A stretch of 44,001 bases of DNA, the filler included, from Jimgerdemannia flammicorona (lineage: Eukaryota), in the NCBI GenBank assembly GCA_003990765.1. It is 2 parts of 2 records of this genome, joined end to end, with 100 filler letters (N's around TTAATTAATTAA, not from the genome) between each part and the next. Parts side by side here need not be neighbours in the genome. Positions count along the whole stretch, not along the records: positions 1 to 21,951 come from RBNJ01001358.1; 1 more part is not named here. One strand, 5' to 3'. Position numbers and translations under genes: made by a program. Shown here one piece after another: positions 313 through 32,371 of this stretch (positions are counted from its first letter, which is position 1; every line of letters begins with the position of its first letter). The notes below the pieces were generated by a model. The model saw only the letters and a program-made list of their open reading frames with translations. It did no database searches and was not told where the DNA came from.

Positions 313-845
313 ACAAATCCTGTTCACTTTGTCTGTGTCGTCTCCGCTGGAGATATGACGGACGTTTCACTCGGAACTCAAGAAAGCCAACAACGTTGGA
401 GCCAGACTTAAGCCCATCCACATGACAGACATTGTTACTAAGAAATTGCCTCGGATTACAAGTAATACTATTTCCGATGGGTTCGAACCCCCAGCCGCGA
501 CTATGGGAGCCCTCGCCCTAGACAAGGATGGCCAGTCCTCACAAATGCGCTGGCATTCTGCTCGTCCCTGGAGTTAAGACCACCCAACTCTGTGTAACCC
601 TCACCACCGAGGATGGCTCTAATTTTGCAAGGGGCAGATGTGACGTAAGCAAATGACAACAGAGTACCAGTGACTGCTAAGATCAGATGACATAATGGCG
701 TGACAATCAAATAGACAGCCTGACCCATTAGGTGATCATCCCAAAAGAAGACAAGATGATCTGAGCCAAAATGAAGACCACGTTATTTAAGGAACCATAC
801 TCCGCCTCAGGGATCAGCACCAAAGAACCAAGTACCCACCACACA

Positions 846-1832
846 ATGCCTCCCATTCGCCGATCCAACCAGACCTCCCGCCGCTCTACCCCTTTGCCTG
901 ACCCAAAGACCCTGATCTTTGAAGCTATCAAGAAGGCCATCTGGCGCCCAGACACTTCTGAACACTTGAACTTCTACACTGAGGACCTTGGACACTTCAT
1001 CAACTACCGGTATATAATGACCCAACAGCTCAAAGACACTACCGAACGAATGACCCTCTGGCATGACTATGAAATCGGACACCGCCTTCGCAATGAGACT
1101 CAAGAAGGCGACTAGGAAGACCTCATTGCTGAAATGTTAACCACCAGCCAGCTAATCAAGAGAGCCCTCCGTGTCCATCAAATCTTCCACCATATTCCCT
1201 GGGCTATAGCACACTTGCAAGGAGTAACAGCTGGCAGCCTCTCACGCCTTTCAACTGAAGATGCTGACTGGATAGAATCTGAAGTAGCCAACACTATTGG
1301 CAGCAACTGCATCACCGTAGGAAGCCAACAAACCGAACCTACTCAGCCAGGCTTCCACACCACCCCACTCCGAGACAACCATCAAGGTCACCTAATGAGT
1401 CTTATGGAGATATTTGAAGGACCGCCCATCACTATAGAGACACTCGTTGGAGCTACCCCAACCACCCACCACCCTGTCAGCCACAATTCACACCTCATCA
1501 TTTGGGAACCGAATCAAGAAGAAGCCCAAGAAGTTCCTATCTTTGAAGAGGAGGCCCAAGAACTCCAAGACCCTGCCCCTGAAGAAACCCCCTCTGACAC
1601 TGAAACTGACGAGCCTTCAGAAGAAGAAAAGGAGCAACAGAGAGTCTATCAGTCCTCTGTCCACATTCAAGCTGTTCAAGGGTTGGAGAATGTTGTTGAA
1701 GATGACTGGCCACTTTTCTACCCCCTCACCTCTTGGCTGGTGCTTCCCCCCTTTGAGGAGAGATATGACGAAGAAGAAATCACAACCCAGCAAGATTTGC
1801 CCGCCACGGACGAAGGGTACTATTTCCTCTAG
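846..1832 (+). pseudogene. LTR-encoded accessory ORF of element C (~328 codons, one in-frame TAG at 1113-1115), unknown function, acidic C-terminal tail
   Basis: ORFs 771-1115 and 1134-1832 are in the same frame, separated by one TAG. Motifs LIFEAIKKAI / WHDYEIGHRL / ALRVHQIFHHIPWAIAHLQGVT align with ORFs in A and B. Confidence 0.75.
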
Positions 1833-1865
1833 AGTACCGCCCATCAGCTGTGAGAACCCAGCTCA

Positions 1866-2080
1866 TGTCAGCTCATCCGAATCCAGCATTGCTACCCAGT
1901 ACCACCGTTTTCAGCATTTTTGTCAGCAGGTCCGAATTCAGCGTTACCACCCTCCACAACCGTTTCTGGCAACAATCATCGTATTATGTCAGCTCATCCG
2001 AATCCAGCGTTGCTACCCAGTACCACCGTTTTCAGTATTTTGTCAGCAGATCTGAATCCAGTGTTGCTATCCCCTACAAC
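1866..2080 (+). repeat. Imperfect tandem repeats in U3 of LTR C (approx. 120-bp duplication built from ~60-bp subunits)
   Basis: atgtcagctcatccgaatccagc(a/g)ttgctacccagtaccaccgttttcag occurs at ~1866 and ~1987, with related tgtcagcag(g/a)tc(c/t)gaat units in between and after. Confidence 0.8.
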
Positions 2081-2194
2081 CCAATCTGTAGTAAACAACA
2101 GCCTGCACCTCGCATCGTGCAAACCAATAGCATAAGTTTGCCACAACGTAGTATATCTTAGCCTTAGTCACGCCCACCTCCCCCATAGCTAGCA

Positions 2195-4869: not shown

Positions 4870-5126
4870 CTAATGTAATGGTGATCTCAGAATGATGATA
4901 TCAGTATAAGAGACAGTCTTTTCTTACAAGCTACCAGATTAGAATATAAGAAGATTATACAGTATGACTCAGGCTATAAGATGAGTAATGATGACTAACT
5001 GTGAGTTATTGTGACTACAGTTCAGGCATCTTGAGGAATATAAAAGAAGGATCAAGGAACTGTAGTAGCAGCAACTCAATAAGACCCACCAATCCCAAAA
5101 TAGCTCAAAGACTTACTACAAATGAA

Positions 5127-5948
5127 ATATCTGCTACTCACCCAATCTCAAGGTCAAGGAACCACCAAGGTACCTCAGTTGAAGAAAGAATATTCCAAAA
5201 CATCAGAAGAGCTATGAGGATCCATATAAGAAGGACTTCTAGCCTCAACATAGGTACTATGGATCCTTATCACTTTATCCTCTACTGTTATGAAATGGAA
5301 ACAAGGATCACTATTGCTACCAAATGTCTCCAAATATGGCAGAAGTATGAAATAGGAAACCTTCTCTGCCAGGAATTCCCACAGGTCAGCTCTCAAGAGT
5401 TACAAGATACCACTCCTATGGATATATACAAAACAATGATAGCAAAGAAGATTCATCAGATCTTCAGACATGTATCATGGTCAATCTCCAACTTGGAGTA
5501 TATTAGAGTCTCAGATTTCAGAGATCTGTCAGCCTACTGTATCAATACACTAGAAGCTAGAGTGACTACAGAAGCCCAGTCCACCATCACTCTCAATAGT
5601 GATGAAGTAGAAGACTTCTGGCATTCCATCCTCCAGGACAATCCAGATCAATTCCTGCAAGGATTGATCTCAGTATTCTAAGGCTCAAGTATCCAGGTTA
5701 GATCTCCCCAAGACCCCATATTTGTTCCTTATTTTGTAAAAGAGAATCTCATGGATTGGAGAGCCCCCAATTTCCCTGCTACCAAATATGATGACATCAT
5801 TGGCAATGACATCATCCTGTATAATATATGTAAAGTATGCAAAATGCACAACCAATGTGATGAGACCAAAACATTCATGAACCTCATCTTCTTTGAGGAT
5901 AGTGATGATGAGGATGAAGCCTCTATAGTCCTGAACATTCTGCTTTAA
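5127..5948 (+). pseudogene. LTR-encoded accessory ORF of element A (~273 codons); second copy in the 3' LTR starts at ATG 13638 and is split by element B
   Basis: ORFs 5001-5681 and 5751-5948 are in frame. The TAA at 5679 is CAA in the 3' LTR copy, and ATA at 5127 is ATG in the 3' copy. Motifs RIFQNIRRAM / WQKYEIGNLL / AKKIHQIFRHVSWSI match the ORF of C; acidic tail EDSDDEDE. Confidence 0.75.
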
Positions 5949-6287
5949 GTCTCTTAGTTATACTAAATTATACCAGTATCCTTTTCCTATATAACAGCTG
6001 TTCTTCCTCCAGCATTCTGACCTTATGACTCAGAATTATTCCAGCACCATTTTTCTGTATTACTGAAATTATACCAACATTCTGAACCTGTGCAACTATC
6101 TGTACTGACCCTGGAACTTAGCAGTTCTCTGTATTTCAGCATTTTTATTTGATTATTGGAATTTATATTTAGCTTTATATCTTAGCAACCATTGAATTAT
6201 ATTTTGTATAAATACCCTTCTTATTTCCTCTGAAATAAAGTCAGTCAAGCTCACTTATATACAATCTCTTATAAGTAATCTAAAGAG

Positions 6288-7444
6288 CAACCTTTTCTCC
6301 GCTACCTTACCAGTCACAAAGTTTGGTAGGTGACCTTCCAAGTCCCCTTTCCCCTAATATTACCCCCCTCTACCTCAGGTTGGTTTGCTGTGCCTGCAGG
6401 GGCATAGTGGGAGGAGGGCAATGGTGATGAGTTGCCTCTTTATTGGTGTCAGATCGGTGCTTTCTCTACTTTTTCGCAGATTCTGGTGCCTTCAACTGCA
6501 TCTGGGGTATACCCGTTTTGGTGCGGCACCTTCTTCCTTTTGCCGATGCCAACAAGGTACTGTCTCGGTGTGTCTCAGGCTATGTAGAGAGTTGGCTGAC
6601 CTTGGGTGTCAAGTGCTCAGTGTAAGTTACCTGCAGGTCCTCGGTGCCTGTGATGGGGCCCTCTGGCTTTGGTGAGCTTCCCGGCAAGCGTGGTTCTGGC
6701 ATAGGTGACTGTTTTTCAGGTGTTGTCGGGATGGGAGGGGAGATGGCCATCACAGATAGGAGAAAGGGCGATTATGGTGTACTAGTAGGGTGCCAGGCTG
6801 GGGGTGGTCATTGGGGCTGGGGCTTCGGTGGGGCCTTTTGATTGGTGTGGCATGGTTAGGTAGTAGGTGTCACTCTCGGCTTCTTTTGGCGATTTGTGGG
6901 GTTGGGCCCTGGTCATTGGGGGGGGTCGGGGGGCCTGAGGCTACCCATTTCAGACATCTTGGCTGCACTCAACTGGAACTGGGAGCTGACACGACAATGT
7001 GATCGAGGCCCACAGGCTTGAGTAGTGGGGTATTGGGGGTCTCCTCCCACCTCATATATAAGTCCTCTACTCACCTCGACTGGGAGAACCAGGCCCTACC
7101 CACCGTGTTGTACTTTGATGAGGGTTTTTTCTTTGCCTGTCATTCTCTTTGGGGTGGCAGGGGCTATTCTATTCGGCTCGAGCATGGCCTTGTACATATG
7201 TTGGGTTCTTGGGCATGCACTTTTGGTCGTTGGTGTATGGCTGGGTTTCCCCTGGTAGTAGGGAGAGCATGGTGCGCAGAATGAGATGCAGGCTACTTTG
7301 CCCTGCTGTGCCTGGCATGGTCAAGCTGCTGGACAATAGCTAGCCTAGGTTAATGGGGGGACAGTGCTTGATAGGTGGTGGGGGAGGGTTTTGGCCTATA
7401 TAGTCTAGGTTCCCTTCCAATAAAAATCCGTGGGACATAGAGTC

Positions 7445-7516
<72 letters not shown>
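6288..7516 (+). mobile_element. Non-autonomous poly(A)-tailed non-LTR retroposon (SINE-like or LINE derivative), ~1.16 kb plus A-tail
   Basis: Absent from the other LTR copy. 15-bp TSD AAGTAATCTAAAGAG (6273-6287, 7517-7531), AATAAA near 7419 and an A-tail at ~7449-7516. Further copies at 22052-22381 and 24321-24384. Confidence 0.92.
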
Positions 7517-7802: not shown

Positions 7803-10800
7803 ATGGAAATGTGTCCCCCCACATTCTATAGATATACTACTAAAGAGTCAATCCTGACCTTTATTGAAGACTTTGAACAATTTGCTACCATATGAGCCCT
7901 TGGTGTAGATGCACAATTGGTCCTTCTACCAGTCAGCCTCAGAGGACCTACTAGAGACAAGTTCAATATAGATATTATTGCTAATAATAGTGCAACCAAA
8001 CTTGCCAATATGAAGGCCTTTCTCAGAACAATATATTATACCAAAGAGATCAAGCAAGCTCTCAAGGATCAACTCAACACTATCTACCAGAGACTCAGTA
8101 AAGATCCCAACTCATTCTATACCTAAATCTATCACCAGATTGTCTTGGCTAGCTATGATGATGCCCTCAAGGAACAAATAGCAGATTCAACCTTTTTTAA
8201 AGGAGTTCACTCTGAAATTGCCCTAGAAATCTGATCTATCCCAGCTGCACTAACCCTTGATCAGAAAGTGGTCTTTGCATAGAGATATTAGACTGCCAGA
8301 CACCCTGCTAAATACTCAATGGAGAAAATAACTGGTATCAAGATAGAGCCATCAAAGCTAACCAGTATCATATCTACTACAGTTATAAACAGACAACCAT
8401 CCCCACCTACCCCCAAGACAACCAAAGCTGACCCAGTGGAAGAACTTACTAAGCAGTTCGCCGAGATGACTGTACATCTTTGTGATGTTGTTAGAGAAGT
8501 CCGAAGCACCAACAGGAGACCAGTGCAGAGATTTGCAGTCACTACAGAAGAATATAATATCACATGCTTTAGATGTAGAGAAGAAGGCCACTATGCAAAG
8601 AGTTGCATGACTGAAATAAGATGTAAAGCCCAACCAAGCAATGCTAGCAGAACCAGAGAACAAACCAATACAGTAGTCATCAAGGAGATTGGTGATACTG
8701 ACAATGAAGAATACTATGAGGAGTCTGAATTCTACCTTACTACTGAAGATACCAGAACCTGGTCCAAGCCCTATGACAAGAAGAGCAACAGCAAGCCAGT
8801 TGGAAGACCAAAGAAGACCCCAGCTGTCACTATTCAAAGCAAGATCCAATCTAAGGAGATTGATCAAGATATGGAGTTAGATGAAGCTGTCTGTCAAATC
8901 ATTGAAGGTACTACTTCAGTCTTAGGAGAAAGTGAAAGCAAGAAGGAACAGAAGCTGTACAAGACCAAGATCCACTAGTATAATATCTACAAGGACCTCA
9001 AGGAACAGAAGATCAATGCTACTTTTGGACAGCTAGCCAAAGTCTCTGCCTTCAGATAGCAGTTAAGAGTAGAACTTGCAACTACTGCCAAGAATCAAGA
9101 GTACAAGATTGTAGAAGCTCACAATGCATAAGAAGATGATCAAGAAGACTCAGGTAAAGAATTCAAAGACCAGTGCAAGATATCAGCCTATACTCCATAT
9201 CAGATTGAAGATTATATCTTTAATGTCATCATTGATACCGGTGCTGGAGGATGCCTCATAAATAAGAAGGCAATTGACTGCTTAGGCTGGGACATTGAAG
9301 AGTCCACCAAGATGGTCTATGTTATAGCAGATGATATATAAGCTACCCCTCTTGGCAAAATCCAAGAAGTCCCCATTAAGATAAGAGGAGCTACCATTCC
9401 AGTAGATGTGATTGTTACAAGCACCACTAACTATAACATCCTCATTGGCAACCAATAGCTTCACAAGGCCAAGGCCATCATTGACCTCAATACCCAGAAG
9501 ATGCAGATCAACTATAGAGGAAGAAAGGTACAAGTCTCTATCAATGTCCACAAAGGAGTTCTACTAGATATAGAGAAAGGAGATAAAGAGGACATAGAAG
9601 TCTTCATGCACTTGGTGAATAAGAACAAGAACAAGATACCCAAGCTCACAGATGAGCAGTAGTATAACAAGATCATCAATAGCTATATCTCTCAAGGAAG
9701 ATGCCCCCATGGTACTAGGATGTACTACTCTGAACACCTAAATGACTGCTGGTCCTGTATTAGTGAAGTTAGGAAAATCTTCCAACAGAAGCATGAGCAA
9801 GAAGCTGCTGAAGCAAAAAGGAAAGCTGAATAAGATGACCAGCCCCCAGAGCTTCAAGCTAACAGTGATAATGAGAATAAATAAGAACCAGACATCACCC
9901 TCAAGGTCAAGAAGTTTCACTCCAAAGCCAAGATTCCAGAATACAAGACTGAAGGAGCCATAGGAATGGACCTTGCCAGCATTCAAGATGCTACTCTTGA
10001 ACCACAGACCACCACCCTACTTGGCATTGAAATTGGAGTCAAGTTGCCAGAGAACCATGCCAGAATTATCAAGACCAGAAGCAGTCTGGCCAAAAGTGAA
10101 ATCTCAGTTAAAGAAGGAGTAATTGACTCTGATTATATTGGCAAGATCTTCCTTATAGTCAGGAATCATAACCCCACCACTCTATTTGAAGTCAAGAAGC
10201 ATGACAGGATTGGTCAGATGCTGATCTATGAAATCAAGAAGCTCAAGATCACTGAAGCCATCAAACTCATCAAGACCAAGAGAGGAGAACAAGGCTTTGG
10301 ATCTACTGGAAGAGGAGTCTATGCTGCTATCAAGATTACCAAACTTGAACACAAGAAAGACAGAGACCAGAATAAGCACACATATACCATTAGAGAAAAC
10401 TTTCCCCTGGAAGAACAACTTCTCAAGGTCCTACACTAGAATGAAGAAGTATTTGCTACAGACTTCAGGGATATCCACAATCAAGAATCCAAGTACTACC
10501 ATGAAGTTGACACTGGTGATATCAAGCCTATCTACCAGAAAGCCAGACCTATACCACCTGCCTATAGAGAATGGCTGCAAGCAGAACTCAAGGAAATAGA
10601 AGAAGCCAGAATCATCAAGCAAGCTATCAGTCTCTGGGCTTCACCCATTGTTCTTGCTCTGAAAAAAGAAAGCAAGTCTGGAGAGTTTGTACCAAGACTC
10701 TGCATTGACTATAGGAAGCTCAATGCAATCACTAAGAAGAATAGACAGCCCTTGCCAAATATTCAAGAAATCCTGACCACCCTTGGAAGTAAAGCCAAAT

Positions 10801-11831
10801 ATTATATTACCTTGGATCTGTTCTCAGACTTTCATCAGATTGGTCTCACTCAAGATACCAGTGAGAAATCAGTCTTCATCACACCTGATGCTACCTATAT
10901 CTACCTGCAAATGCTATTTGGAATGTGCAATACTCCAGGAAGTTTTCAGTGAATGATGAACAGAGTCTTCAGCAATGAGATTGGAAAATGGCTCTTTATC
11001 TATATTGATAATGTGATCATCTTCAGCAACACTGTATAGGAATATGTCAACCACATACAGCTAGCCCTCAAGAAGCTCAAGGAGCATGGCCTCTATATCA
11101 AGCCTAAGAAATGCAGGTTTACAGCTCAGGAAATTGCCTACCTAGAACACCTCATCAACCAGACCAGAATCTATACAGACCCCATGAAGATTGAGGCTAT
11201 TGCAGCCTATCTGAGACCCAGAACAACTACAGAAGTCCATGCCTTCCTTGGACTAGCCAGCTACTATAGAAGATTCATCAAAGGATACTCTAACATTGCA
11301 GTACCTATCTACAAGCTACTGAAGAAGGAGACTAAATTTGAATAGACAAAAAAATGCCAAGAAACCTTCAATGAACTCAAGACTAGGTTGACCCAAGCAC
11401 CTATCCTCAGAAGACCAGATTGGAACCTAGAATTCATCCTGTAGACAGATGCAAGTGCTATAGGACTTAGAGCAGTCTTAGCTCAGAAGAAAAATGGATA
11501 TAAATATGTCATCTCCTATACAAGCCAAGGTACTTATAGAGCAGAACAGAACTACAAGTTATATAAGCTTGAATGCTTAGCAGTAGTTTGGGCAGTAGAC
11601 AAGTTCCACTACTACCTAGCTAGGAAATACTTCACTATTCAAACAGACCATTCTGCTCTTGTCTAGCTATTCCACACTCTGAACCCCAAAGAAATATATG
11701 TCAGATAGATCTACAGGCTGCAAGAGTATGACTATACTATCAAGCACCACTCAGAGAGAACCAATACCAATGCTGATGCACTCTCAAGGATACTCCAAAA
11801 CACTCCCATCAAGACTATTCAACATAAATAA
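7803..11831 (+). pseudogene. Element A Gag-protease-dUTPase-RT-RNase H polyprotein (single frame, many nonsense mutations)
   Basis: Zn knuckle CFRCREEGHYAKSC; protease VIIDTGAG (~9225); dUTPase motifs; RT RLCIDYRKLN, LDLFSDFHQI, YIDNV (mutated YxDD); RNase H TDAS..., TDHSAL, NADALSR. All checkpoints share the frame of ATG 7803. Confidence 0.92.
9891..10310 (+). pseudogene. dut: dUTPase domain between protease and RT in element A
   Basis: All five trimeric dUTPase motifs are recognisable: GMDL, RSSLA, GVIDSDY, RIGQML, RGEQGFGSTG. Confidence 0.93.
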
Positions 11832-13020
11832 GGAGTTATACTATGGATTAATCAGCTACCTTAGGCAGCAGAAGATGCCCAACCACCTCAAACTCTGGAC
11901 AATCACCATCATCAACCAGACTTAGAAATAGTTTGAATTAGACAACACCATACTCAAAAAAAGAGGAAAGCTTATAATACATAAATACAAGAAGTATCAA
12001 GTAATGAAAGAAGTACATGAACAAGGATATCTAGGAGGAACCAACATATATGACAAGGCAAGAAGAACTATGTGGTGGCCCAAGATGGAAGAAGACCTGC
12101 ACCAATTTGTCAAAGAGTATAATAAGTGCCAAAAACAGAAATAAGATCAGTAAGACCAGGCACCCAGGTTATCAAGAATTGAGCCTATCCTCTTCCACCA
12201 CATTACAATGGATATCATTGGGCTACTACTAGTAACACTATCAGGAAACTGTTATATTATAGTTATTATAGACCTCTTTACTAAATAGATAGAAGTAGGA
12301 GTATTACAAGAAGTCAATGCCCTCTCTATAGCTGACTTCCTGTACTGAGAAATCATCTGCTGCTATAAGACACCAAGGCAAATTACCACAGACTGCAGTA
12401 TAGAATTTGTCAATAGATTTCATGAGATAATGTATCAGAAATACAGGATTCAGTACATCAAGACTACTGCATACCACTCTCAAGGAAATAGACAGATAGA
12501 AAGAACCAACAAGACTCTCAAGAACATTCTGATAAAGATCTCAGACACATATAAGAATTGGAATAACTACCTTCCAACTGCTCTCTCTATTCTACAAGAC
12601 ATACAGTCATAGAGTATACACTTTACTCCAAGAGAACTGCTCTTCAGAGAAGAAGATTCTAATGGAATCTCAGTCACAAATCTAGACCTAACTTGGAGAT
12701 AGGTTGATGCAAAAATCTGGAGGCTACACCAAATTAGGAAGAAAGCTGAAGATTACATCATCAAGTCACAAATACTAATGAGGAAGAATGCAGAAAAGAA
12801 TCACAAGACCCTAGAACCCATCCAAATTGGAGAAAAGGTCCTACTATATCAAAATATGGTAAAAGCCTCATAGTTACGAAAACTGGAGCCCAAATGAGAA
12901 GGACCCTTCTATATGCAAGATATCAAGAGAATTACCTTCTGGCTTAGAAAAATCTCAGAGACTATACTGCCTACCACAGTATATAGGAATAGACTCAAGA
13001 AGTATCATGAACCTATATAA
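11824..13020 (+). pseudogene. Element A integrase, separate ORF in +1 frame overlapping the RNase H stop
   Basis: (M>I)NKELYYGLISYL...TTAYHSQGNRQIERTNKTLK...KLEPK.EGPF; frame differs from upstream pol; same junction as in B. Confidence 0.88.
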
Positions 13021-13374
13021 GAGAAGTAAAATGTAATGACTGCCCATGAGGTTCTAGTTTGTAAATCATAACAGCATATTCCATAATCAGTAGGCTATTT
13101 GTCTGGACCATTCTCTAAGGGATACGATACCAGCAACTACTTATCTGTGAGACTTTTGAAGCCAGAGGAGTTCAAACCATCAACTAATTGGTCAAGATCA
13201 GAATCAGGCCCTTACTCTATATGAAGGAAATGACCCTTCACCATCATGCCAAAATATATAGAGAAGATGCCAGCCTATAAATACCACTTTTTGACCCCTT
13301 GCCAGAGGTTATGGGATCAGCAAATTTTTCAGAACTAGACTAATGAATAAGGATGTTCAAGAAGATCCTTATTC

Positions 13375-13384
13375 AGGAGGAAGA
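13375..13384 (+). promoter_or_regulatory. Polypurine tract of element A
   Basis: AGGAGGAAGA abuts the 3' LTR; B has AGGAGAAAGA (14411-14402, minus). Confidence 0.8.
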
Positions 13385-13935
13385 TATAATGATGATCTCA
13401 GAATGATAACATCAGTATAAGAGACAGCCTTTCCTTGCAAGTCACCAAATTAGAACACAAGAAGATTATATAGCATGACTCAGACTATGAGATGAGTAAT
13501 GATAACTAACTATAAGTCATTGTGACCACAGTTCAGGCATCTTGAGGAATATAAAAGAAGGATCAAGGAACCACAGTAGCAGCAACTCAACAAGACCCAC
13601 TAATCCCAAAATAGCTCAAAGACTTACTATAAATGAAATGCCTGCTGCTTGCCAAACCTCAAGGTCAAGGAACCACTAAGGCACCTCAGTCAAAGAAAGG
13701 ATATTCTAAGACATCAGAAGAGCCATGAGGACCTATACAAGAAGGACTCCTAGCCTCAACTTGGGTACTGTAGATCCTTATCACTTTATCCTCTACTACT
13801 GTGAAATGGAAATAAGGATCACCATTGCTACTGAATACCTTCAAATATGGCAGGAGTATGAAATAGGAAACCTTCTCTGCCAGAAGTTTCCACAGGCCAG
13901 CCCTCAAGAGTTATAAGATACACTTCTATAGATAT

Positions 13936-14401
13936 TGTAATGTAGCAGATGCTTACTCTTGAAAGTATGTCAGATTTCTGTATCTTGAATACTTGATCTT
14001 TTCTGACTCCTCAGAGTCCTTAGGATGCAGGGGTGGATGAGTTCGAAGTGTATCTGCCTACAGGCTTACTAGTTCCTTTACTATCTCTTTGCTTTTGAAC
14101 TATTTTGATCTGAGGTTTATTCACTCTAAGATACTGAGTTATTTATATAAGTTTTACTAACTATAAGGTGGCTAAATAATGGCTCATTTTGCAAGTGCTG
14201 AATCTTTTAACATCTGCCAAGATTTTGCTGATTGCAAAGATTCTAACATCTCCTAAATCTTTACAAATGTTAAAATTTCTGCACTTTGCAAAATATGACT
14301 GCTATTTATGTGGCTATACTATATTGGGAATCAGATTTAGGTACTGCAATCAAATGTCTAATTCCCCTATTTCATGTTACTAATTCAGATCAGCTGTCAC
14401 A
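13936..14401 (-). repeat. 3' LTR of element B
   Basis: Direct repeat of 20183-20648 with about 30 mismatches by manual count, nearly all transitions. Confidence 0.95.
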
Positions 14402-14430
14402 TCTTTCTCCTGAATAGGTGATTCGTCTTA

Positions 14431-14904
14431 GGAGCATCCTATTCACTTGAATTCCCAGGCTTCTACGATTTGTATCTCCTTATACTGTGTGATCTGCATC
14501 ATTACGTCCTTCCAATGTTGTCTCTTGATGTATCCAAAGTCTCCTGGGGTCACTCCTCAGAAATGGGCTAAGGCTGACTCATCGTCTTTAAATAACTTGT
14601 GCACTCTTTTTGCAATTGTGATCTGAATGTAGGAGAGCTGACATTCTCTGATCCAGTCTTCTTTTCCCATCTTCGGTCTTGAATTCAGTAGCTGTCCCAA
14701 CTTGAAGTATTCCTGGAACTTGGTTCAGTTCTGGTAGGCCTTGAAATGTGAAATTCGTGACAAGTGTGTTTGCACTATGCTCTGGATACTGTCAAAGGAT
14801 TCTTCCATAGTTGGTGGCTCAGTGGAACACCACTGTCTTTCAATGGCTCGCTAGGCTGTGCTAGTAATTCTGAGAGCAGCAGTATTACTTCGTTGGCTGG
14901 TCAT
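14431..14904 (-). pseudogene. Accessory ORF of element B between integrase and PPT (~150+ codons; only TGA/TAG stops, no frameshift)
   Basis: Manual translation: MTSQRSNTAALRITSTA*RAIERQW...KFQEYFKLGQLL...ITIAKRVHKLFKDDESALAHF*GVTPGDFGYIK. The ATG overlaps the IN 3' end. Aligns with the LTR ORFs of A and C. Confidence 0.72.
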
Positions 14905-16087
14905 GGTACTTCTTGAGTCAGTTTCAGTGGATGGTAGTGGGGATGATTGTGCCTGAGAGTTTTCGTAGCCAAAAGGTGATTCCTTTTATATCTTGCATGA
15001 GGTAAGGTCCTTCCCACTTGGGCTCCAGTTTTCATGACCATGAGGCTTCTACCATGTTCCGATACACCAGGACTTTGTCTTCTATCTTGATAATCTCTAG
15101 GGGTTTGTGGGTTTTTTCTGCATTCTTCCATTGTAGTGCCTGCGCCTTCGTTATGTAATCCTCAGCCTTTTTCCTGATTTGGTGTAGTCTCTGTATTTCT
15201 CCATCCACGTGTTTCCATACAGCATCCCCATTAGATGATAGAGTTTCTTGAAAACTTTCTTCTCCAAACAGCATTTCTTGAGAGGTAAAGTGGGTACTTT
15301 GTGATCTGATATCTCGGAGAGCAGATAATGCTATTGGCAGATAGTGATCCCAGTTTTCATAATTATCGCAGATCTTGGCAATAACATTCTTGAGGGTCTT
15401 GTTGGTCCTTTCTGCTTGTCCATTTCCTTGAGGGTGATAGGCTGTGGTCCGAATGTGCTGGATCTTATACTTCTTGTAGAGAACCTCGAAGAACTGGTTC
15501 ACAAATTCTGTTCCTCTATCTGTGGTTACTTGCATTAGAGTCTTGAACTGGCAGATAATTTCTTTGTGGAAGAAATCAGCGATTGACTGTGCATTGGCTT
15601 CCTTGAGGGGTCCTGCTTCTATCTACTTTGTAAAAAGGTCTATGATGACAATGATATAACAGTTGCCAGTCAGGGTCAAGAGTAGAGGGCTGATTACATC
15701 CATTGCTACGTGGGCAAATGGTACTGGTTCTATATATGCTGATCCTGGGGCTTGGTTTTGTTGGTCTTGTTTCTGTTTCTGGCATTTGTCGCAGGTTTTG
15801 ACAAATTGTCTGATATCTTTCTCCATTCCTGGCCACCATATCGTTCTTCTTGCCTTGTCGTATGTATTTATTCCTCCTAGATGGCCGAGCTTGTGTACTG
15901 ATTTCATTGCTTGCTCCTTCTTGTGTTCTGGTATAACTAATAGTTTTCCTTTCTTCAGCATTTGTCCATCCATTTCGAATTGTTTCCATATTCTGTTGAT
16001 AATTATTTGTGTCCATTCTTCCAGATGTTGGGGCATCTTTTGCTGTCCCAGATATGTGATGATCCCATAGTAGAGCTCCTTATTCAT
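14885..16087 (-). pseudogene. Element B integrase, separate ORF
   Basis: MNKELYYGIITYL; HHCC finger HKLGH...CDKC; TDRGTEF, TTAYHPQGNGQAERTN; KLEPKWEGPY. Confidence 0.92.
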
Positions 16088-19000
16088 AATTGATTTGTTG
16101 GTTGGAGGTGTTTTGAGGTGTCTGTGAGAGAGCATCTGTATTGGAATTTGTTCTTCCAGGGCAGTGTACAATGGTTACATCATAGGCTTGTAACTTCATT
16201 ATCCATCTAGCATAGATTTCTTTGGATTGTCCAGTTGTCAGTAGCCAGGTGAGGGCTGAGTGGTCCATCTGAATAGTGAAGTGTCTTCCAGCCAGATAGT
16301 AGTGGAACTTTTCCACAGCTCAGATGACTGTGAGACATTCCAACTTGTAGGATTCGTATTATTTTTCAGCTCCTTGGGTTCCTTGGCTAAGATATGCAAT
16401 GACATACTCTTTTTTGTCTTCCTTTTGAGCTAGACCTGCTCCTAGTCCTTGTGCACTTGTGTCTGTCTGAAGGATAAACTCTTAGGTCCAATTAGGTCGT
16501 CTGAGGATGGGTGCCTGGGTCAGTCTGATCTTGAGTTCATCAAATACTTTTTGTTGTCTACCAGTCTACTGAAATTTAGTGTCCTTCTTGTTGAGTTCGT
16601 AGATTGGTCCTGCAATATTGGAGAATCCTCTGATAAATCTACGATAATAGGAGGCAAGTCCCATGAAGGCTTGGGCTTTCATAACAGTGGTGGGCCTTAG
16701 ATATGCTGCTACTACTTGTATCTTGAGGGGGTCCATATGCGTTCCATCTCGATTGATAACATAACTAAGATAGGAGATCTTGATTTCTGCAAATTTGCAT
16801 TTTTTGGGCTTGATATACAGGCCATGCTTCCTCAGTCTTTTCATTATCTGTCATATATGCTGCAAGTGTTCCTCAGGTGTCTTGCTGTAGATGATTACAT
16901 CATCGACATAGACCATCATCCATCTTCCCATGTCATAGTGGAAGATTTTGTTCATCATTTGCTGAAAGCTTGCTGGTGCATTGCACATCCTGAATGGCAT
17001 TTGTAGGTAGATATAGGTTCTGTCTGGGGTGATGAAGGCTGAATTTTCACTTGCCATTTCTGTGAGTCCGATTTGGTGGAATCCTGAGTATAAGTCCAAG
17101 GTGCTGTAGTATGTGCTTCATCTCCCAGTATTATAAGGATGTCACTGATGAGAGGCAGTGGTTGGCGATCCTTCTTGGTAACTGTATTGAGCTTTCTGTA
17201 GTTGACACAGAGTCTTGGGGCGAATTCTCCAGGTTTGCTTCCCTTTTTTGGAGCTAGTATGACTGGTGAAGACCAGGGGCTGCTGACTTCTTTGATAATA
17301 CCAGCTTCTTCCATCTACTTGATTTCTTCTCTGAGCCATTCTCGGTATGCTGGTGGCACAGGTCTTGCCTTTTGGTAAATTGGTTTGGTGTCTCCAGTAT
17401 CTATCTCATGATAGTAGTGTGGAGTCTTTCCCTTGATATCCTTGAAATCCGTGGTGAGGACATCCTCGAATTCATGGAGTATTTTCTTGAGTTCCTCCTT
17501 GAGTGGAAATTCAATTCCAATGGTGTAACTGTGCCTGTTTGTGATTTCCTCCTTCTTATACTCTAGTTCAGTGATCTTGGTGCTGGCGAATACTCCTCTT
17601 CCTGTAGATCTGAATCCTTTCTTTTCTCTTTTCGTTTCCTCCAAATTCTTGACTTCTATGATCCTTGGTTGTAGGATTGGAAAGATCAACATCTGTGCCA
17701 ATCAGTCCTTCTTCTTGACTGGGAATGGGATTGTAGGATTGTAATTCCTAGCAATGAGCAGGATTTCTCTGATATAGTCAGAATCGATGACTCCTCCTTC
17801 AATCGTAATTTCACTTCTGGCCAGGCTACTTCTTGTCTTGAGGATCCCGACATGATCCTTTGGGATAGTCATTTCCAGTCCAGTTGCGAGTAAGGTGGTT
17901 GTTTGGAGTTCTAGTACAACTTTTTCTACTGTAGCAATGTCCATTCCAGCTGCATTTTCTGACTTGTATTCTGGCAGGACTGCATCAGGGTGGGTCCTTC
18001 AGATCTTGATCTTAATTTCTTCTTCATCATTGCTATCCTCCAGGAGGGCTGGTAGTTCATCATCTTCCTTCTCCTTCTCTTCTCTGATCTGTTTTTTGAG
18101 AGCTTTTTGTCTTCTTTCCTGGTGGATTTTCTTGATTCTGATAGTGCACTGGTAGCAATTGTTGACATGCTCCATACAGTACATCTTGATCCCATGAGAA
18201 CAGACTCCTTGTGGTATATAGCCTTCTGCGATCTTCTTACACCATTCTTCTTCACTCATTTGTCCAACTTTCTTCTTTAGAGTAGTCACCATATAAGCTT
18301 CCTTTTGCTTGTTCTCTTCTTCCTCCATATCAGGCAAGACTCCTTTGTTGACATTGATGGGAATTCGTATTTTCTGTCCCCAGTAGGTGATTTGCATTTT
18401 CTGGGCATTGAGATCAATTACTGCCCTGACTTTGTGAAGCCATTGATTGCCGATGAGAATGTCATAGTTGGTGGCATTGGTTACAATTACATCTACTGAG
18501 ATGGTTGCTCCTCCAATCTTGATAGGGACTTCTCAGATCTTTCTCAGAGGGGTGGCTCTTGTACCATCTGCTGTAATGAAAACCAACTTGGTTGCTTCTT
18601 CAACTTCCCAGCCTAGGCAGTCTGCTGCTTTCTTGCTGAGGAGACATTCTCCTGCTCTAGTATCGATGATGGCTTCAAAGACTCTATCTTCGATTTGGTA
18701 TGTTGCATAAGCAGAAGTTTTGTGATTGTCTTCACTTTCTTCTCCTGAGTCCTCTTGAACATTATTGGCCTCGGTTATCTTCCATCCTTACTCCTTAGTT
18801 GTTTTGGCAAGTCCAAACCTCATTTGTTGTCTGAACGTTGGGATTTCTGCAAGCTGACCAAAGGTTGTATTGACCTTTTGTTGGCTGAGATCCTTGAAGA
18901 TATCGTACTTGAAAGTCTTGGTCTTGCAAAGTTTCTTTTCTTTTTCTCCTTTGCTGGCTGGGGTAGTTCTTTGGATAATATCTTGAACTGCTTGCTCCAG

Positions 19001-20062
19001 CTCCATATCTTGGTCCATCTCTTCAGCTTGGCTTTTGGTGGCTGTTTCTATCTATTTTTCTACTGGGTTCTTCTTGGGTCTTTCTGGTGGTCTCTTGTAG
19101 GGTTCCTTGCAAACATCCTTCTTGGTAGTCTGAGCAGGATAGGCCTCCCATTCTTCTTCATCAGAATCTCCAATTTCCTTGAAGGTAATTGTATTGGTCT
19201 GCTCTTTGTTTCATGTAGCATTGCTTGGTTGAGCCTTGCGCTTGGTTTCACTCATACATTCATAAGAGTAGTGGCCTTCTTCTCCACAGGTATAGCAGGT
19301 ACCTTTCTTCTTGTCCGAGGTGGCGGCAAACTTCTGAACTGGGCAGTAGTTTCTTCCTTGGATTTCTTTTACCACATCTCCCAAGTGGGCGGTCATTTCG
19401 GCAAACCTCTTGGCAAGTTCCTCCATAGGGTCACTGTTCTTTTACTGCTCTGTAGTTTTTGGCTGAGGTGTGTTTCGATTGATCATTGTAGTAGGGATCA
19501 CACTAGTTGCCTTGGGTATTTTGATTCTGACTCCTGTGACTCTTTCCATTGTGTGGTCTTATGGGTGTCTGGCTGTCCAATATCACTGAGCATAGGTGAC
19601 CTTCTGTGGTAGATCCAAGACTACTAGTGATGAATGGATGACCATGGCTATCTCTAGGTGAACTCCTTTTATGAAGGTTGTTTCGGCTACTTGATCTTGG
19701 ATAGCAGCAGCATAATCTGTGAGGATTATCTGATATCGAATTCTGGTATAGAATGTGTTTGGATCCTCACTTATTCCTTGGTATATTGTGTTGAGCTGAT
19801 CCTTCAGGGCTTGCTTGATCTCATCTGTATAATATGTATTTCAGAGCCAGGTCTTCTGTGCTGTCAGTATAGCATTGGCATCATTTCCTGTATGGGTTGT
19901 GGCTGTAAATGCTGCTCTAGCAGGACCTTGTAGGCTGAAGGGCATGAGGGCTACTTGCTGTGCTGCTGTCAGGGTCCTTACAGCAGCATACTGTTCAAAA
20001 TTATCAATGAAGGTAATGATTGATTCATCTGAGGTATACTCATGGAATACTGGTGGTCTCAT
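16080..20062 (-). pseudogene. Element B Gag-protease-dUTPase-RT-RNase H polyprotein
   Basis: MRPPVFHEY start; CYTCGEEGHYSYEC; AIIDT(R)AG; SPWSSPVIL, RLCVNYRKLN, YVDDV; DHSAL, NTDALS; one frameshift near 17115. Confidence 0.93.
17600..18016 (-). pseudogene. dut: dUTPase domain of element B
   Basis: AAGMDI, RSSLA, GGVIDSDY, LAQML, GF(R)STG. Confidence 0.92.
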
Positions 20063-20182
20063 ATCTATTTTTTCTGGGTATTATGGCTCAGTTTGTGTAG
20101 TTGCTCGGGTAGTGGTGGTTGTTTGTTGTTCAGCTTGAAAGTGAGGGATTCATCTTGAATTACTAGCCAATGGGCACCAAGT

Positions 20183-20648
20183 TGTAATGTAGCAGATGCT
20201 TACTCTTGAAAGTATGTTGGATTTCTGTATCTTGAATACTTGATCTTTTCTGACTCCTCGGAGTCCTTGGGATGCAGAGGTGGATGAGTTCGAAGTGTAT
20301 CTGCCCACAGGCTTACTAGTTCCTTTGCTATCTCTTTGCTTTTGAACTATTTTGATCTGAGGTTTATTCACTCTAAGATACTGGGTTATTTATACAAGTT
20401 TTACTAACTATAAGGTGGCTAAGTAATGGCTCATTTTGCAAGTGCTGAATCTTTTAACATCTGCTAAGATTTCACTGATTGCAAAGATTCTAACATCTCC
20501 TAAATCTTTACAAATGTTAAAGTTTCTGCACTTTGCAGAATATGGCTGCTATTTATGAGACTAAGCTATATTGGGAATTGGATTCAGGTACTGTGATCAA
20601 ATGTCTAATTCCCCTGTTTCATATTACTAATTCAGATCAGCCATCACA
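20183..20648 (-). repeat. 5' LTR of element B
   Basis: Partner of 13936-14401, followed on the minus strand by the PBS; TATA/AATAAA core at 20357-20400. Confidence 0.95.
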
Positions 20649-21951
20649 ATATATGCAAAACAAGGACAGCAAAGAAGATTCATCAGATCTTTAAGCATGT
20701 ACCATGATTGATCCCTAACTTGGAGTATGTTAGAGTCTCAGATTTCAGAGATCTGTCAGCCCACTATATTAATGCACTAGAAGCCAGGGTGGCTACAGAA
20801 GTCCAGTCCACCATTACTCTCAATAGTGATGAAGTAGAAGACTTCTGACATCCCATCCTCCAGGACAACCCAGATCAATTCCTATAAGGATTTATCTCAG
20901 TATTCCAAGGCCCAAGCATCCAGGTTAGATCTCCCCAAGACTCCACATTTGTTCCTTATTTTGTGGAAGAGAACTCATAGATTGGAGAGCCCCCAATTTC
21001 CCCACCACTGAACATAATGTCATCAGCAATGACATCATCCCATATGACATATATGAAGCATGTGAAATGCATGACCAATGTGATGAGACTGAAACATTTA
21101 CAGACCTCATCTCTTTTGAAGACAGTGATGATGAGGATGAAGCCCCCATGGTCCTGAACATTCTGCTCTAAATCCCTTAGTTACACTGAATTATACCAGC
21201 ATCCTTTTCCTGTGTAATAACTGTTCCTCTACCAGCATTCTGACCTTGTGACTCAGAATTATTCCAGTATCATTTTTCTGTATCACTGAAATTATACCAG
21301 TATTCTGAATCTGTGCAACCATCTGTGCTAACCCTGGAACTTAGCAGTTCTCTGTATTCTAGCATTTTTATTTGGTTATTGGAATTTATATTTAGCTTTA
21401 TATCTTAGCAACTATTGAATTATATTTTGTATAAATATTCTTCTTATTTCCTCTGAAATAAAGTCAGTCAAGTTTACTTATATACAATCTCTTGCAAGTA
21501 ATCTAAAGAGATAACAAGATAGTTTAAAAATAAGAAGTTTGAGGACTATAAGACCTTAGGAAGGCACTCTAATAAGAACTTGCTTATAACAAACTTGAGT
21601 TAGTCTAAGAGATACACCTTGAAGAGAATCTGACATATTTGAAGGACTCAGCGACCACTATATGATACTAATTATAAAATATATAGTAGAACTAATTTAG
21701 AAAGATGTGGCCTACTATTTATAAGTAGAAATAGTATTGATAAGTAGAAATAATATTTATTAATAGAAATGTATTTTATTCTATTTTAGTATATCAGATT
21801 ATTTATATAGTAAAGTAGTATAAGAGGTAACTATGCTGAGTAACTATACTAGATAACTATTTGTACATCATCTGACTATATTATAATATTTGCTCATTAT
21901 ATCAGCCTCTACTAAAGAATAGTCTGTCCTTAGACTATTCTTTATTTATTA

Positions 21952-22051
21952 NNNNNNNNNNNNNNNNNNNNNNNNNNNNNNNNNNNNNNNNNNNNTTAAT
22001 TAATTAANNNNNNNNNNNNNNNNNNNNNNNNNNNNNNNNNNNNNNNNNNNN
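21952..22051. other. Assembly gap / artificial spacer (N44-TTAATTAATTAA-N44)
   Basis: Exactly 100 positions, with an all-frame-stop linker in the middle. Confidence 0.95.
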
Positions 22052-24906: not shown

Positions 24907-26952
24907 GAGAACTCTTTGTCAGACGCGCCAAATTCACCGTTGAAATTAGACGCCAGGGGCTCTTACGGTTTTGAAGGTCCCGTGATCTTGCCGCCCTTGC
25001 CCGGGTGTTGCCAGACCGTGCACGCATTGCGATCGTGCGTAACACTTCTCGGTGGTACTCTGCTGGCTTGGGGAGAGAGGAAACGATGTACCCGAGCTGA
25101 CCGGCAGGCTCTCCATTGCCTTGTCAAGGCAAAAATTGACGATGGCGGACACAAGTCTCGTCTGCCGGGACCGGATGGCGGTGGCGAGGGCGCTCTCCTT
25201 GCGGCGGTTGCGGGGAACCCAGACCGATCCCTTTTCGTTCTTTTCTGAGTCGCAAAGTTCTTGCCCGAATACTTGTTGGTGTAGTTGGTGATGAGTCCGA
25301 TCACCTCGTTTATGGTGGGGTGTTTCTGGTACCGGATGTCGGTGAAGTGCGCGATCAGGGTCAGGAACTCGGCGGCATTCCGCACGATGGCTGTCTTCTA
25401 CGCCAGGGTGATGCTTTCCTCATCCGGTAGCTCCAGCACCACCGGACTTGCTCAAAAGGTGACGTGCAGCCGTTGAGAGCTAGTGGAAGTGATCTCGAGC
25501 TTGACTATCTCGATGCAATCAATTTCAAGGGTCCGAGAACTGGTCTCATCTGCGTGGAACGCCGCGTTTCCAAGTCTGGACTACTTCTGAAGAGCGCGAT
25601 GGTATATTTGCCGATGCTGAAGAATTTCTTGTGGTTCTGGTCACTCTCCTGTGGATCCTGAGGAGGTTCCACACCTTGTCCAGGTCCTTCTAGTCGGTGG
25701 TAAAGGTGGAGAAAACGTGAGGTCTGTCTGACGATTGGTCGTTCTCGACGCTGTTCGAGTCGTTGGTGCCCACATCCGTGAGTTTCGGTTCCTTTTGTCA
25801 TCCGCAGGATAAATGGTCAGGAATGTCAAGTGCCGGTGGGTTTGTGAGGGAGCAGAAGCGAGCGCGGTGTGATGCTCTTCATCGTGATATAGAATCCATC
25901 CTCGAAACAGAAAGTATGCAAAAAGTCACTAGCAGTGGATTGATGGAGGGGACAGAGCTTGAATGGGTCGTATACGGTGTAGGTCGTCGAGACGAGCACT
26001 ACAAGTTGGCCTGTGCTAAGAAAACACATTCTCTGTATCTCATGCGTCCGGGTCGAGCTGAGCTTCAAACCGTTCTTTATCGAATAGCATGAAAACGCAG
26101 GTTCTAGCGACCGAGTATGCACAACTAAGAAGGCGCCTTCTGAAGAAATATCCATTGTCAACACGTCCTTGACACCGTCCTCAAGGGCGAATGCAGCGTT
26201 AGAACGTTCAGGTTGTCATTCCCCGACGACATAAAAATCTCCTTATGCATCAATGTGAGCTGGTGGATTAGAACGCTAGTTTGCCATTGCCACTCGTGCG
26301 GTAAGTCCTATGTGTATTCCTTCATATTTTCCACGTCTGCGCGTCCCACAGCTAAATCTTCCCTGGGTAATGCTGCAGCACGGTTAATACGTCCCCCTCA
26401 ACGAACCCGGCAGCATAATTCTGGCCCTCGGCGAACTCAGACAATTTCGTGCCCGCGTTTAGCGCGGCGAAGACCTCAAAACGGGAACAGTGAGTGCCCT
26501 GGTCTTCATATGCGTACGTCACGGCCACATACTCGGCACTACGGGAAAGCGACAGGGCGATTTTGCGTCGGAGCCGAAAGATGGTTTCGTGCGTAAGCGG
26601 GATCGTCGTCGGCGCCGACCATATATTCACGGAGTCGGCAGCAGGGTCGGCAGAGAGCCGCCACAGCGTGAGCGTGCCGTTGTTGCTAAGCACCGCGACC
26701 TCTCCAGTGTCGTTCAAAGCCAAAGCCGCAATCTCGTCTGGCGCGCGCGGTGGCTCGGCAGGTGATCGAATATTTCAACGGCGTCGTCGTTCCGCGTGAT
26801 ATCGCTTCTATTGTCATCGCGGTCAGAGGTCTCTGTCAATCATTGGGACGTCGCCGGATGGTGATAGAGCGGTGACGCCGATGAAGGTCGATAAGGCGAA
26901 GGGGAAGGAGCCTGAGCCCACGCTGGTGATGTGTGATATGTAGGTCGACCAT
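24907..26952 (-). pseudogene. Truncated, deletion-riddled tandem paralogue of the WD40-like/TRP channel gene
   Basis: Co-linear with ~30210-32371 (ALNDTGEVAVLSN.GTLTLWRLSADPAADS...; ATG at 26952); many frameshifting deletions; transmembrane half missing. Confidence 0.93.
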
Positions 26953-31600: not shown

Positions 31601-32371
31601 AACCAAGAAGGCGCCGTCTGAAGAAATATCCATTGTCAACACGTCCTTAACACCGTCCCCAAGGTAATACAAGTTCTCTGTTGGACCGTCCTTCAGCGAA
31701 TGCAGTGTTAAGACGTTCAGGTTGTCATTCCCCGACGATATAAAAAAACCCTTACGCAGCAATGTGAGCTGGTGGATTAGAACGTTAGTCTGCCATTGCC
31801 ACTCGTGCGGGAAATCCCACGTGTATTCCTTCACAATTGTCCACGTCCGCACGTCCCACAGTTGAATATTCCCTGGGTAATGCTGCAGCACGACCAATAC
31901 GTCCCCCTCAACGAACCCGGCAGCACAGTTCTGGCCCTCGGCGAACTCGGGCAGTTTCGCGCCCGTGTTTAGCGCGGCGAAGACCTCAAAACGAGAACAA
32001 TGAGTGCCCTGGTCTTCGTACGCGTACGTCACGGCCACGTACTCGGCACTGCGGGAAAGCGACAGGGCGATTTTGCGTCGGAGCCGGAAGATGGTTTCGT
32101 GCGTGAGCGGGATCGTCGTCGGCGCCGACCATATATTCACGGAGTCGGCGGCGGGGTCGGCAGAGAGCCGCCACAGCGTGAGCGTTCCGTCGTTGCTAAG
32201 CACCGCGACCTCTCCAGTGTCGTTCAAGGCCAAAGCCGCAACCTCGTCTGGCGCGCGCAGCGGCTCGGTGGGTTTGTGATGGAATGTTTCAATGGCGCCC
32301 TCGTTCTGTGTGATATCACTTCTGTCGTCGTCGTCACGATCAACGTGGATTGCGATATGTAGGTTGGCCAT
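28652..32371 (-). CDS. TRP-like cation channel with N-terminal WD40-like beta-propeller region; exons 32371-29080 and 28956-28652 (~1198 aa)
   Basis: 1114-aa ORF with IQLWDV / DISSDG propeller-like strands; six hydrophobic helices; pore segment NAFKLFTTALLSVYLFLSGDY; S6 IILLNVLIALLNSVY; TRP-helix-like VWLHQMTELIAEIE. A GTATGC...CTGAC...GCAG intron (29079-28957) joins an in-frame coiled-coil exon. Confidence 0.88.

Follow-up and report, generated by a model that had tools for sequence, protein, structure and literature searches.

In the long terminal repeat (LTR) retroelements and retroviruses of textbooks, integrase enters the particle as part of Gag-Pol. Here we describe a Ty3/gypsy-type lineage in which, judging from sequence comparison, integrase is very probably a separate cistron and not the tail of a Pol polyprotein. 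It is represented by two nested elements, A and B, in a 44,001-nucleotide stretch of the Jimgerdemannia flammicorona genome assembly GCA_003990765.1 (the window: parts of two records joined by filler letters, with positions 1 to 21,951 from RBNJ01001358.1). For a retroelement, a separate cistron is an unusual means of producing integrase, and a lineage that has one raises the questions of how the amount of integrase is set and how the enzyme reaches the reverse-transcription complex. Foamy-virus Pol, a single protein of protease, reverse transcriptase (RT), RNase H and integrase made from a spliced RNA, is similar in that a replication enzyme is translated from its own start codon and not as a Gag fusion, and different in that Pol is unsplit and its RNA spliced. 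The Caulimoviridae share the abutting or overlapping open reading frames (ORFs), which on their polycistronic RNA meet or overlap by a few nucleotides, but a viral transactivator is needed there and integrase is absent.

In canonical Ty3/gypsy elements, Pol carries integrase at its C-terminal end and the protease frees it; where recoding occurs, it lies between gag and pol (PMC3248453). A and B resemble Ty3, Tf1 and the fungal chromoviruses in their TG..CA LTR ends, 4-bp target duplication, CCHC Gag and protease-RT-RNase H-integrase order; they differ from the canonical arrangement in that Gag through RNase H form one ORF and integrase starts from an AUG of its own that follows or overlaps the ORF1 stop. 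A dUTPase between protease and RT, which A and B carry, is also described for PosPlaTy3-5 (PMC2864245) and for Juno, Vesta and TelKA (PMC5408684). Compared by description only, the placement is the same as in these dUTPase-carrying Gypsy elements of basidiomycetes and bdelloid rotifers, and the available parts of both papers give them one Gag-Pol ORF, or gag plus pol, with integrase inside pol and no mention of a separate integrase cistron (PMC2864245, PMC5408684). We found no separate integrase cistron described for an LTR retrotransposon in open-access PMC and bioRxiv texts; subscription journals, Repbase or the structure-table supplement of PMC2864245 could hold one.

The closest parallels at the level of translation are systems that reinitiate after a long ORF. 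As summarised in a 2023 review, these include calicivirus VP1/VP2, influenza B M1/BM2, ORF A/B of Cryphonectria hypovirus 1 (CHV1) and ORF1/ORF2 of the non-LTR retrotransposon SART1, the last two with a UAAUG junction (PMC10275272); coupling of ORF A and B at UAAUG in this fungal hypovirus also appears in a second source (PMC2699510). The viral cases need a termination upstream ribosomal-binding site (TURBS), a structure with 18S complementarity, and SART1 needs a downstream structure (PMC10275272). The junctions studied here are like these cases in their out-of-frame, shared or near-shared stop and start and in the lower level expected of the downstream product. They differ in that no conserved structure or UGGGA motif was found and in that the coupled genes would be the RT-RNase H and the integrase of an LTR element.

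A frame change between RNase H and integrase in A and B

Self-blastn of the window and inspection of repeat ends revealed two nested LTR retrotransposons, with B (13936-20648, minus strand) inserted in the 3′ LTR of A (plus strand). ORF1 of A (7803-11831, +), defined by translation and by Pfam matches to zf-CCHC and dUTPase, encodes a CCHC Gag, protease, dUTPase, RT and RNase H in 1343 codons that stay in a single frame throughout, with 20 internal stops and a terminal TAA at 11829-11831. Its counterpart in B (16080-20062, -) has the same Gag, protease, dUTPase, RT and RNase H and 16 internal stops. Between RNase H and integrase, both elements change to the +1 frame. On the minus strand the B junction reads attATGAATAAgg, in which the ATG at 16087-16085 opens the integrase frame (MNKELYYG) and the RNase H frame closes at the TAA of 16082-16080, giving the 8-nt overlap ATGAATAA (16080-16087, -); the integrase ORF that begins there (ORF2, 14885-16087, -) contains an H2C2 finger, an rve core and four internal stops. 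The RNase H frame of A ends CAT AAA TAA. Here the junction ATAAATAA (11824-11831, +), which aligns without indels to the ATGAATAA of B, holds ATA at 11824-11826, 5 nt ahead of the ORF1 stop. This ATA, which opens the +1 frame as INKELYYG, is the former start codon of an integrase ORF (11824-13020, +) with 10 internal stops and a natural stop at 13018-13020. The codon preceding the ORF1 stop is AAA in A and GAA both in B and in L077, the closest metagenome relative of B (73.9% nucleotide identity), in which B's 12-mer ATGAATAAGGAG is unchanged.

The frame change bears the marks of long-standing selection on either side. In a global alignment of A and B, all coding indels are multiples of three except for a 1-nt deletion in the RT of B, and none occurs from A 10795 to A 13013, a span reaching from mid-RT to the end of integrase; because no indel intervenes, A and B share a homologous frame change. 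Substitutions are most frequent at third codon positions, counted in frame 0 as far as ~11800 and in frame +1 beyond ~11830, and the most variable position accordingly moves from mod3=2 to mod3=0 between ~11800 and 11830. Between A and B, for which synonymous divergence (dS) is saturated, the ratio of nonsynonymous to synonymous substitution (dN/dS) is 0.155 in the coding frame of RT-RNase H (0.86 and 1.32 in the wrong frames) and 0.051 in that of integrase (0.95 and 1.15); wrong-frame values in this comparison span 0.83-1.40. The RNase H frame fits best over the 12-13 linker codons (0.31), where there are very few sites. Comparison of B with L077 gave 0.08 for ORF1 (wrong frames 1.08 and 1.40) and, for integrase before and after an internal TAG considered below, 0.133 (0.78 and 1.12) and 0.105 (1.13 and 1.83). 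Integrase was thus read in a frame other than that of RT-RNase H through the whole divergence of these elements.

A preliminary description of this DNA had located both junctions, traced Gag through RNase H of A in one frame and treated A and B as two independent elements with the same junction. All of its coordinates proved correct when the junctions were re-read, and the 4-kb frame of A undergoes no shift. The junction is indeed shared; its independent origin does not hold, the indel-free alignment pointing to inheritance from a common ancestor.

Two further explanations were considered and set aside. A short intron joining the two frames in A or B would need a GT in the interval from the ADALS(R/Q) codons to the integrase start, and there is none. 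An alternative genetic code was raised by TAG codons of A that face TGG and CAA in B; L077 has a 1168-codon ORF1 with no in-frame stop under the standard code.

Integrase starts in metagenome relatives

Proteins related to the B integrase were sought by searching its N-terminal ORF against 1.84 billion representative proteins (E<=1e-3), which returned 16749 matches. Sixteen of the best 150 begin at the methionine of MNKELYYG, and five of these 16 are stand-alone integrases of 394-448 aa; the matched proteins that were looked up all come from metagenome assemblies. Long polyproteins among the matches, with RNase H and integrase fused as usual, align only from the H2C2 finger onwards and are more distant families. 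A word-indexed search yielded close relatives, several of which (P0022, P0090, P0155, P0156, P0158, P0160 and P0161) open in the integrase frame within the codons of the ADALSR motif, and the same +1 relation therefore holds in those family members; one of them, P0161 (433 aa), is an intact close relative resembling A.

A profile of five full-length integrases identified 452 confirmed stretches in the JGI metagenome collection, of which 80 loci were kept. For tblastn against these loci, one integrase and the RNase H portions of both elements, their stops written as X, served as queries. RNase H and integrase lie on one strand in 51 of the 80, and among the relatives amino-acid identity with the query integrase falls to 35%. 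At every one of these 51 loci, the RNase H frame meets a stop before or at the integrase start; none is fused. An ATG stands at the codon aligned to the integrase start in 43. In the other eight the match begins at residue 17-62, and an ATG follows the stop in seven (L014, L019, L022, L031, L035, L053 and L079), while in L075 the first ATG lies 56 nt ahead of the stop. Neither matched stretch contains a stop codon in 29 of the 51 loci. Relative to RNase H, integrase is in frame 0 in 11 loci, +1 in 15 and +2 in 25, and most frame-0 loci have additional stops in the spacer, so that in most in-frame cases read-through cannot fuse the two proteins. In L077, ORF1 is intact: its 1168 aa comprise CCHC, protease, dUTPase, RT and RNase H, and it ends in ATGAATAAGGAG.

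RNase H-integrase fusions in intact family members had been named beforehand as the finding that would undo the case for a programmed, inherited frame change with integrase as a separate ORF; none of the 51 loci has one, the intact ORF1 of L077 closes within ATGAATAA, and selection in two frames, the indel-free alignment and the stop in 51 of 51 relatives all uphold that case. Judged by these alignments, the separate-cistron layout is shown to be ancestral, kept by selection and present in intact relatives. It has held across deep divergence, in three relative frames and in many intact copies.

A and B, by themselves, would also fit a coincidental or inherited defect in dead copies, with integrase supplied in trans by other elements, for both are dead (30 and 20 stops, LTR identities of 87.5% and 93.8%, and ATA in A). 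We give this explanation next to no credence: integrase is under purifying selection in the shifted frame, the layout recurs in 51 of 51 relatives, 29 of them without stops in the matched RNase H and integrase stretches, and ORF1 of L077 is intact. Annotation pipelines that expect integrase within Pol will call such elements frameshifted or defective and may misjudge the number of active copies.

One codon of integrase deserves separate mention. In A (12286-12288), B (15625-15623, -) and the otherwise intact L077 (3963-3965) it is TAG, and in the 80 loci it is TGG in 70 and TAY in seven. Programmed read-through of this UAG was considered and is less likely, as the intact P0155 (79% identical to B) and P0161 have tryptophan there. 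In favour of a leaky UAG, integrase downstream of it is under purifying selection (dN/dS 0.105, B versus L077); a hairpin predicted ~45 nt downstream shows little covariation. Recurrent TGG>TAG decay is the simpler and more likely reading.

Junction geometry and possible routes to integrase expression

A third ORF completes the layout. In B (14443-14904, -, with its ATG at 14904 and three internal stops) and in L077 (L077:4684-5145) it encodes 153 aa from a start inside the KKYH codons at the C-terminal end of integrase; its methionine is at the same place in A, B and L077. The overlapping cATGAcc at 14904 in B and cATGAac at 13007 in A had been noted earlier as a hint of polycistronic translation, and the hint has gained substance, since ORF3 is under purifying selection between B and L077 (dN/dS 0.052; 0.76 and 2.38 in the wrong frames). 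In A, the homologous ATG (13007-13009, +) survives and the ORF beyond it has decayed. A Pfam scan of ORF3 from B and L077 found no family, and Atlas neighbours were uninformative. Similar frames occur elsewhere, beginning at an ATGA over the integrase stop in L015 and a few nucleotides past that stop in L047 and L055. The elements thus appear to be tricistronic.

How the second cistron might be reached is suggested by the junction itself. ORF1, which ends in its stop codon, codes for Gag, protease, dUTPase, RT and RNase H, ORF2 for the whole integrase from its own conserved AUG (MN/MD-x-E/D-L-Y-Y), and ORF3 for a small protein starting within the last integrase codons. At AUGAAUAA, where the AUG lies 5 nt before the UAA, ribosomes that have terminated on ORF1 of the full-length RNA would start again at the neighbouring AUG and release free integrase in a lower amount than Gag-RT; ORF3 would be reached likewise from the end of the integrase ORF. 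Because stop-start arrangements of this kind (<=20 nt; AUGA, UAAUG) mark reinitiation after long ORFs, termination-coupled reinitiation is the means of integrase expression that we favour, at about an even chance of being correct.

Junction distances, taken from the ORF1 stop to the integrase ATG, were obtained for 42 placed loci. They comprise a long overlap of -67 nt (one locus); overlaps of -11 nt (ATGAAC..TGA, two loci), -10 nt (ATGGA..TAG, three), -8 nt (ATGAATAA or ATGAATAG, five) and -4 nt (ATGA, two); the -1 forms TAATG or TGATG (four); short spacers of +2 nt (one) and +10 to +24 nt (three); and spacers of 63-101 nt (17) and 156-521 nt (four). In a maximum-likelihood tree of 45 integrases, built by quick search with support from the Shimodaira-Hasegawa-like approximate likelihood ratio test (SH-aLRT) only, the two elements group with L077 (SH-aLRT 100) within a clade of 15 rows (SH-aLRT 100). 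The junctions of these 15 are all of -11, -10, -8, -4, -1 or +2 nt, six geometries that fall in both non-zero frames.

Within this subclade stop and start lie close together. The ORF1 frame of all 15 rows is open as far as the AUG, across a tail of 11-27 codons that is poorly conserved; it closes no more than 11 nt past the AUG or, where the junction is -1 or +2, shortly ahead of it. The chance of an ORF1 tail staying open as far as the AUG is 0.31-0.73 per locus, the rows are related and some tails share ERLPK.GP; as an argument from chance, the open tail lends weak support. UAAUG or UGAUG is present in L019, L024, L054, L055 and L078, AUGA in L008 and L011, and AUGAAUAA in the window. Out-of-frame stop and restart within ~20-30 nt, as in TURBS-type systems, are seen in A, B and the whole 15-row subclade, and the overlapping stop and start of the SART1 type are present as well.

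The same geometries bear on frameshifting. Programmed +1 frameshifting by the ribosome, at the UAA or ahead of it and in the manner of Ty1, Ty3 or antizyme, would fuse RNase H to integrase. It would suit the +1 integrase frame of A, of B and of the remaining loci with -8 and -11 junctions, where the stop could act as the slow codon and, in A, the P-site codon would be the AAA before UAA. The preliminary description had listed it among the possible mechanisms, along with termination-reinitiation and a separate mRNA. As a general mechanism it is rejected because relatives have frames 0, +1 and +2 (11, 15 and 25 of the 51) and a conserved AUG: +1 and +2 members sit side by side in the 15-row subclade, the spacers often contain further stops, and an AUG conserved in 43 of 51 loci would be needless for a frameshift. 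The pre-stop codon, AAA in A against GAA in B and L077, leaves no conserved slippery heptamer; neither such a heptamer nor the fixed direction of Ty1/Ty3-type frameshifting was found. Frameshifting is untenable for the lineage, and we hold it to be very improbable in A and B.

Several observations weigh against reinitiation. RNAalifold predicted no conserved pairs at the junction (0 pairs in 14 subclade sequences, -70 to +110 nt around the AUG), leaving both the conserved upstream structure of TURBS systems and the RNA structure downstream of the ORF1 stop in SART1 without a counterpart. The 18S-complementary motif fared no better: UGGGA, the calicivirus-type motif, lies within 120 nt upstream in one of 17 tight-junction loci, which is neither A nor B. 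Tight junctions could reflect compaction alone, and a start of the form ATGAAT-AAR, simply by encoding the N-terminal peptide MNK/MNR, places stops in the two other frames. The sister clade of 30 rows is looser, with spacers of 63-101 nt at 17 loci and of 156-521 nt at four, and close relatives within it may have 10-11 nt in one case and 86-101 nt in another; members of this clade can therefore do without stop-start proximity. Right before the integrase AUG, the spacer clade instead has a conserved sequence of ~50 nt, GACACC..AACGGAT.ACCC.TTTTGATTT.AACGGA, for which no pairs were predicted in 12 sequences (L020, L028, L030, L032, L037, L040, L049, L050, L058, L063, L066 and L069); in L074 the ORF1 frame extends to a TGA within it. 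This sequence could act as promoter, acceptor or ribosome-recruiting signal. In the sister clade, a signal other than stop-start proximity seems to drive integrase expression, and it possibly does so in the window's clade too.

Much of this would suit a subgenomic RNA. Integrase, and perhaps ORF3, would then be translated from an RNA of its own, either spliced, as for retroviral env or foamy-virus pol, or started at an internal promoter in or just after the RNase H region, and the overlap would be a matter of compaction. Splicing is the usual route to 3′ gene expression in retroelements; the sister clade tolerates 10 to 521 nt between ORF1 stop and integrase AUG, its conserved, unstructured ~50 nt resemble a protein- or DNA-level signal more than a reinitiation structure, and the tight junctions lack conserved structure. 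However, the tight-junction loci share no conserved AG acceptor in the ~30 nt that precede the integrase AUG, and a subgenomic RNA does not predict an ORF1 that is open to the AUG and closed no more than 11 nt after it in 15 of 15 rows and six geometries. We consider this route a serious possibility, albeit an unlikely one.

A further point against reinitiation, which would favour internal ribosome entry, comes from four loci (L015, L023, L034 and L060) in which GGTGAAAGCGAAAGT and a hairpin lie 10-20 nt before the AUG, within a spacer of 63-81 nt. In that hairpin 4 of 13 pairs are kept through two-sided changes in at least one of the four sequences. ORF1 of these loci runs ~280-360 aa past RNase H (L015:235-1095, L023:1885-2754, L034:2580-3419 and L060:1502-2575), an extension with no Pfam match in L023, L034 and L060. 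Ribosomes recruited to an A/C-rich region or RNA element of the full-length RNA could go directly to the integrase AUG, independently of ORF1 termination, and the 60 nt before the AUG are indeed A/C-rich and G-poor (A 484, C 399, T 292 and G 205 in 23 sequences). Even so, no element is common to all clades, the hairpin covariation comes from four sequences only, and the strict stop-start proximity of the window's subclade is left unexplained; we judge internal entry improbable.

A bolder form of the reinitiation model, to which we give somewhat less than an even chance, is that the full-length RNA of this large and widespread lineage, with its 452 confirmed stretches in one metagenome collection, is a true polycistronic message, with reinitiation at overlapping starts that need no TURBS-type structure. 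Integrase would then be a free protein that must find the particle or the cDNA in trans, and we know of no studied retrovirus or LTR element in which integrase is such a protein. Reinitiation after an ORF of 1200-1350 codons without a TURBS-like structure would also provide a new natural model of a poorly understood step of eukaryotic translation.

Architecture of the nested elements and neighbouring sequence

The LTR of A opens with TGTAATG. Its 5′ copy spans 4874-6287 (+), and its 3′ copy is broken by B into a first part at 13384-13935 (+) and a second at 20649-21510 (+); in self-blastn, 4873-5425 matches 13384-13935 and 5422-6287 matches 20649-21510, at ~87.5% identity. B is bounded by LTRs of 466 nt each, 93.8% identical and with ends TGTAATG...TCACA, at 20183-20648 (5′ in B orientation, -) and 13936-14401 (3′, TG..CA ends, -). 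Its insertion duplicated 4 bp, ATAT, at 13932-13935 and 20649-20652, and the unbroken site is seen in the 5′ LTR of A. B is the younger insertion of the two. The internal parts of A and B are 66.7% identical over a 5460-nt alignment and therefore represent different but related families.

Direct LTRs with TG..CA termini and a short target duplication, together with the order Gag, protease, RT, RNase H and integrase found by translation and Pfam, place both elements with Ty3/gypsy; integrase as the C-terminal part of a Pol polyprotein, the remaining hallmark of that group, is absent from A, B and all 51 relatives. Pfam matches in the elements and L077 comprise zf-CCHC, aspartyl proteases, RVT_1, RT_RNaseH, Integrase_H2C2 and rve. 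The dUTPase (PF00692) between protease and RT was matched at 9885-10439 in A (E 2.5e-26) and at residues 535-662 of L077 ORF1 (E 2.4e-28), and is also present in the homologous part of B. Integrase has an H2C2 finger, a D,D35E core and a KLEPKWEGPY (GPY/F-like) module. With in-frame stops totalling 30 in A and 20 in B, these are clearly old copies of related Ty3/gypsy-type families, and both are dead. The 1-nt deletion of B ORF1, near 17116 within RT, is absent from the preliminary description and is ordinary decay.

Between the 5′ LTR and Gag, the leader of A contains a long A-run (7300-7500) that reads as poly-Lys in one frame. Upstream of A, the C terminus of another integrase, that of element C (...KLEPKWEGPY...RNRIRLYY), followed by more open frames, occupies 1-312 and 765-2161 (+); its RNase H/integrase junction lies beyond the window. 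A 329-nt inverted repeat of 92% identity pairs 6294-6622, just inside the 5′ LTR of A, with 22379-22052, beyond its 3′ LTR, and adjoins two 44-nt runs of N (21952-21995 and 22008-22051), which may indicate further rearrangement or an assembly gap. Farther downstream, a host gene context with long intron-free ORFs includes a 1132-aa ORF with an Ion_trans domain (29027-32425, -), part of which recurs as a diverged partial duplicate, 24907-26819 matching 30210-32333 at 77-85% identity.

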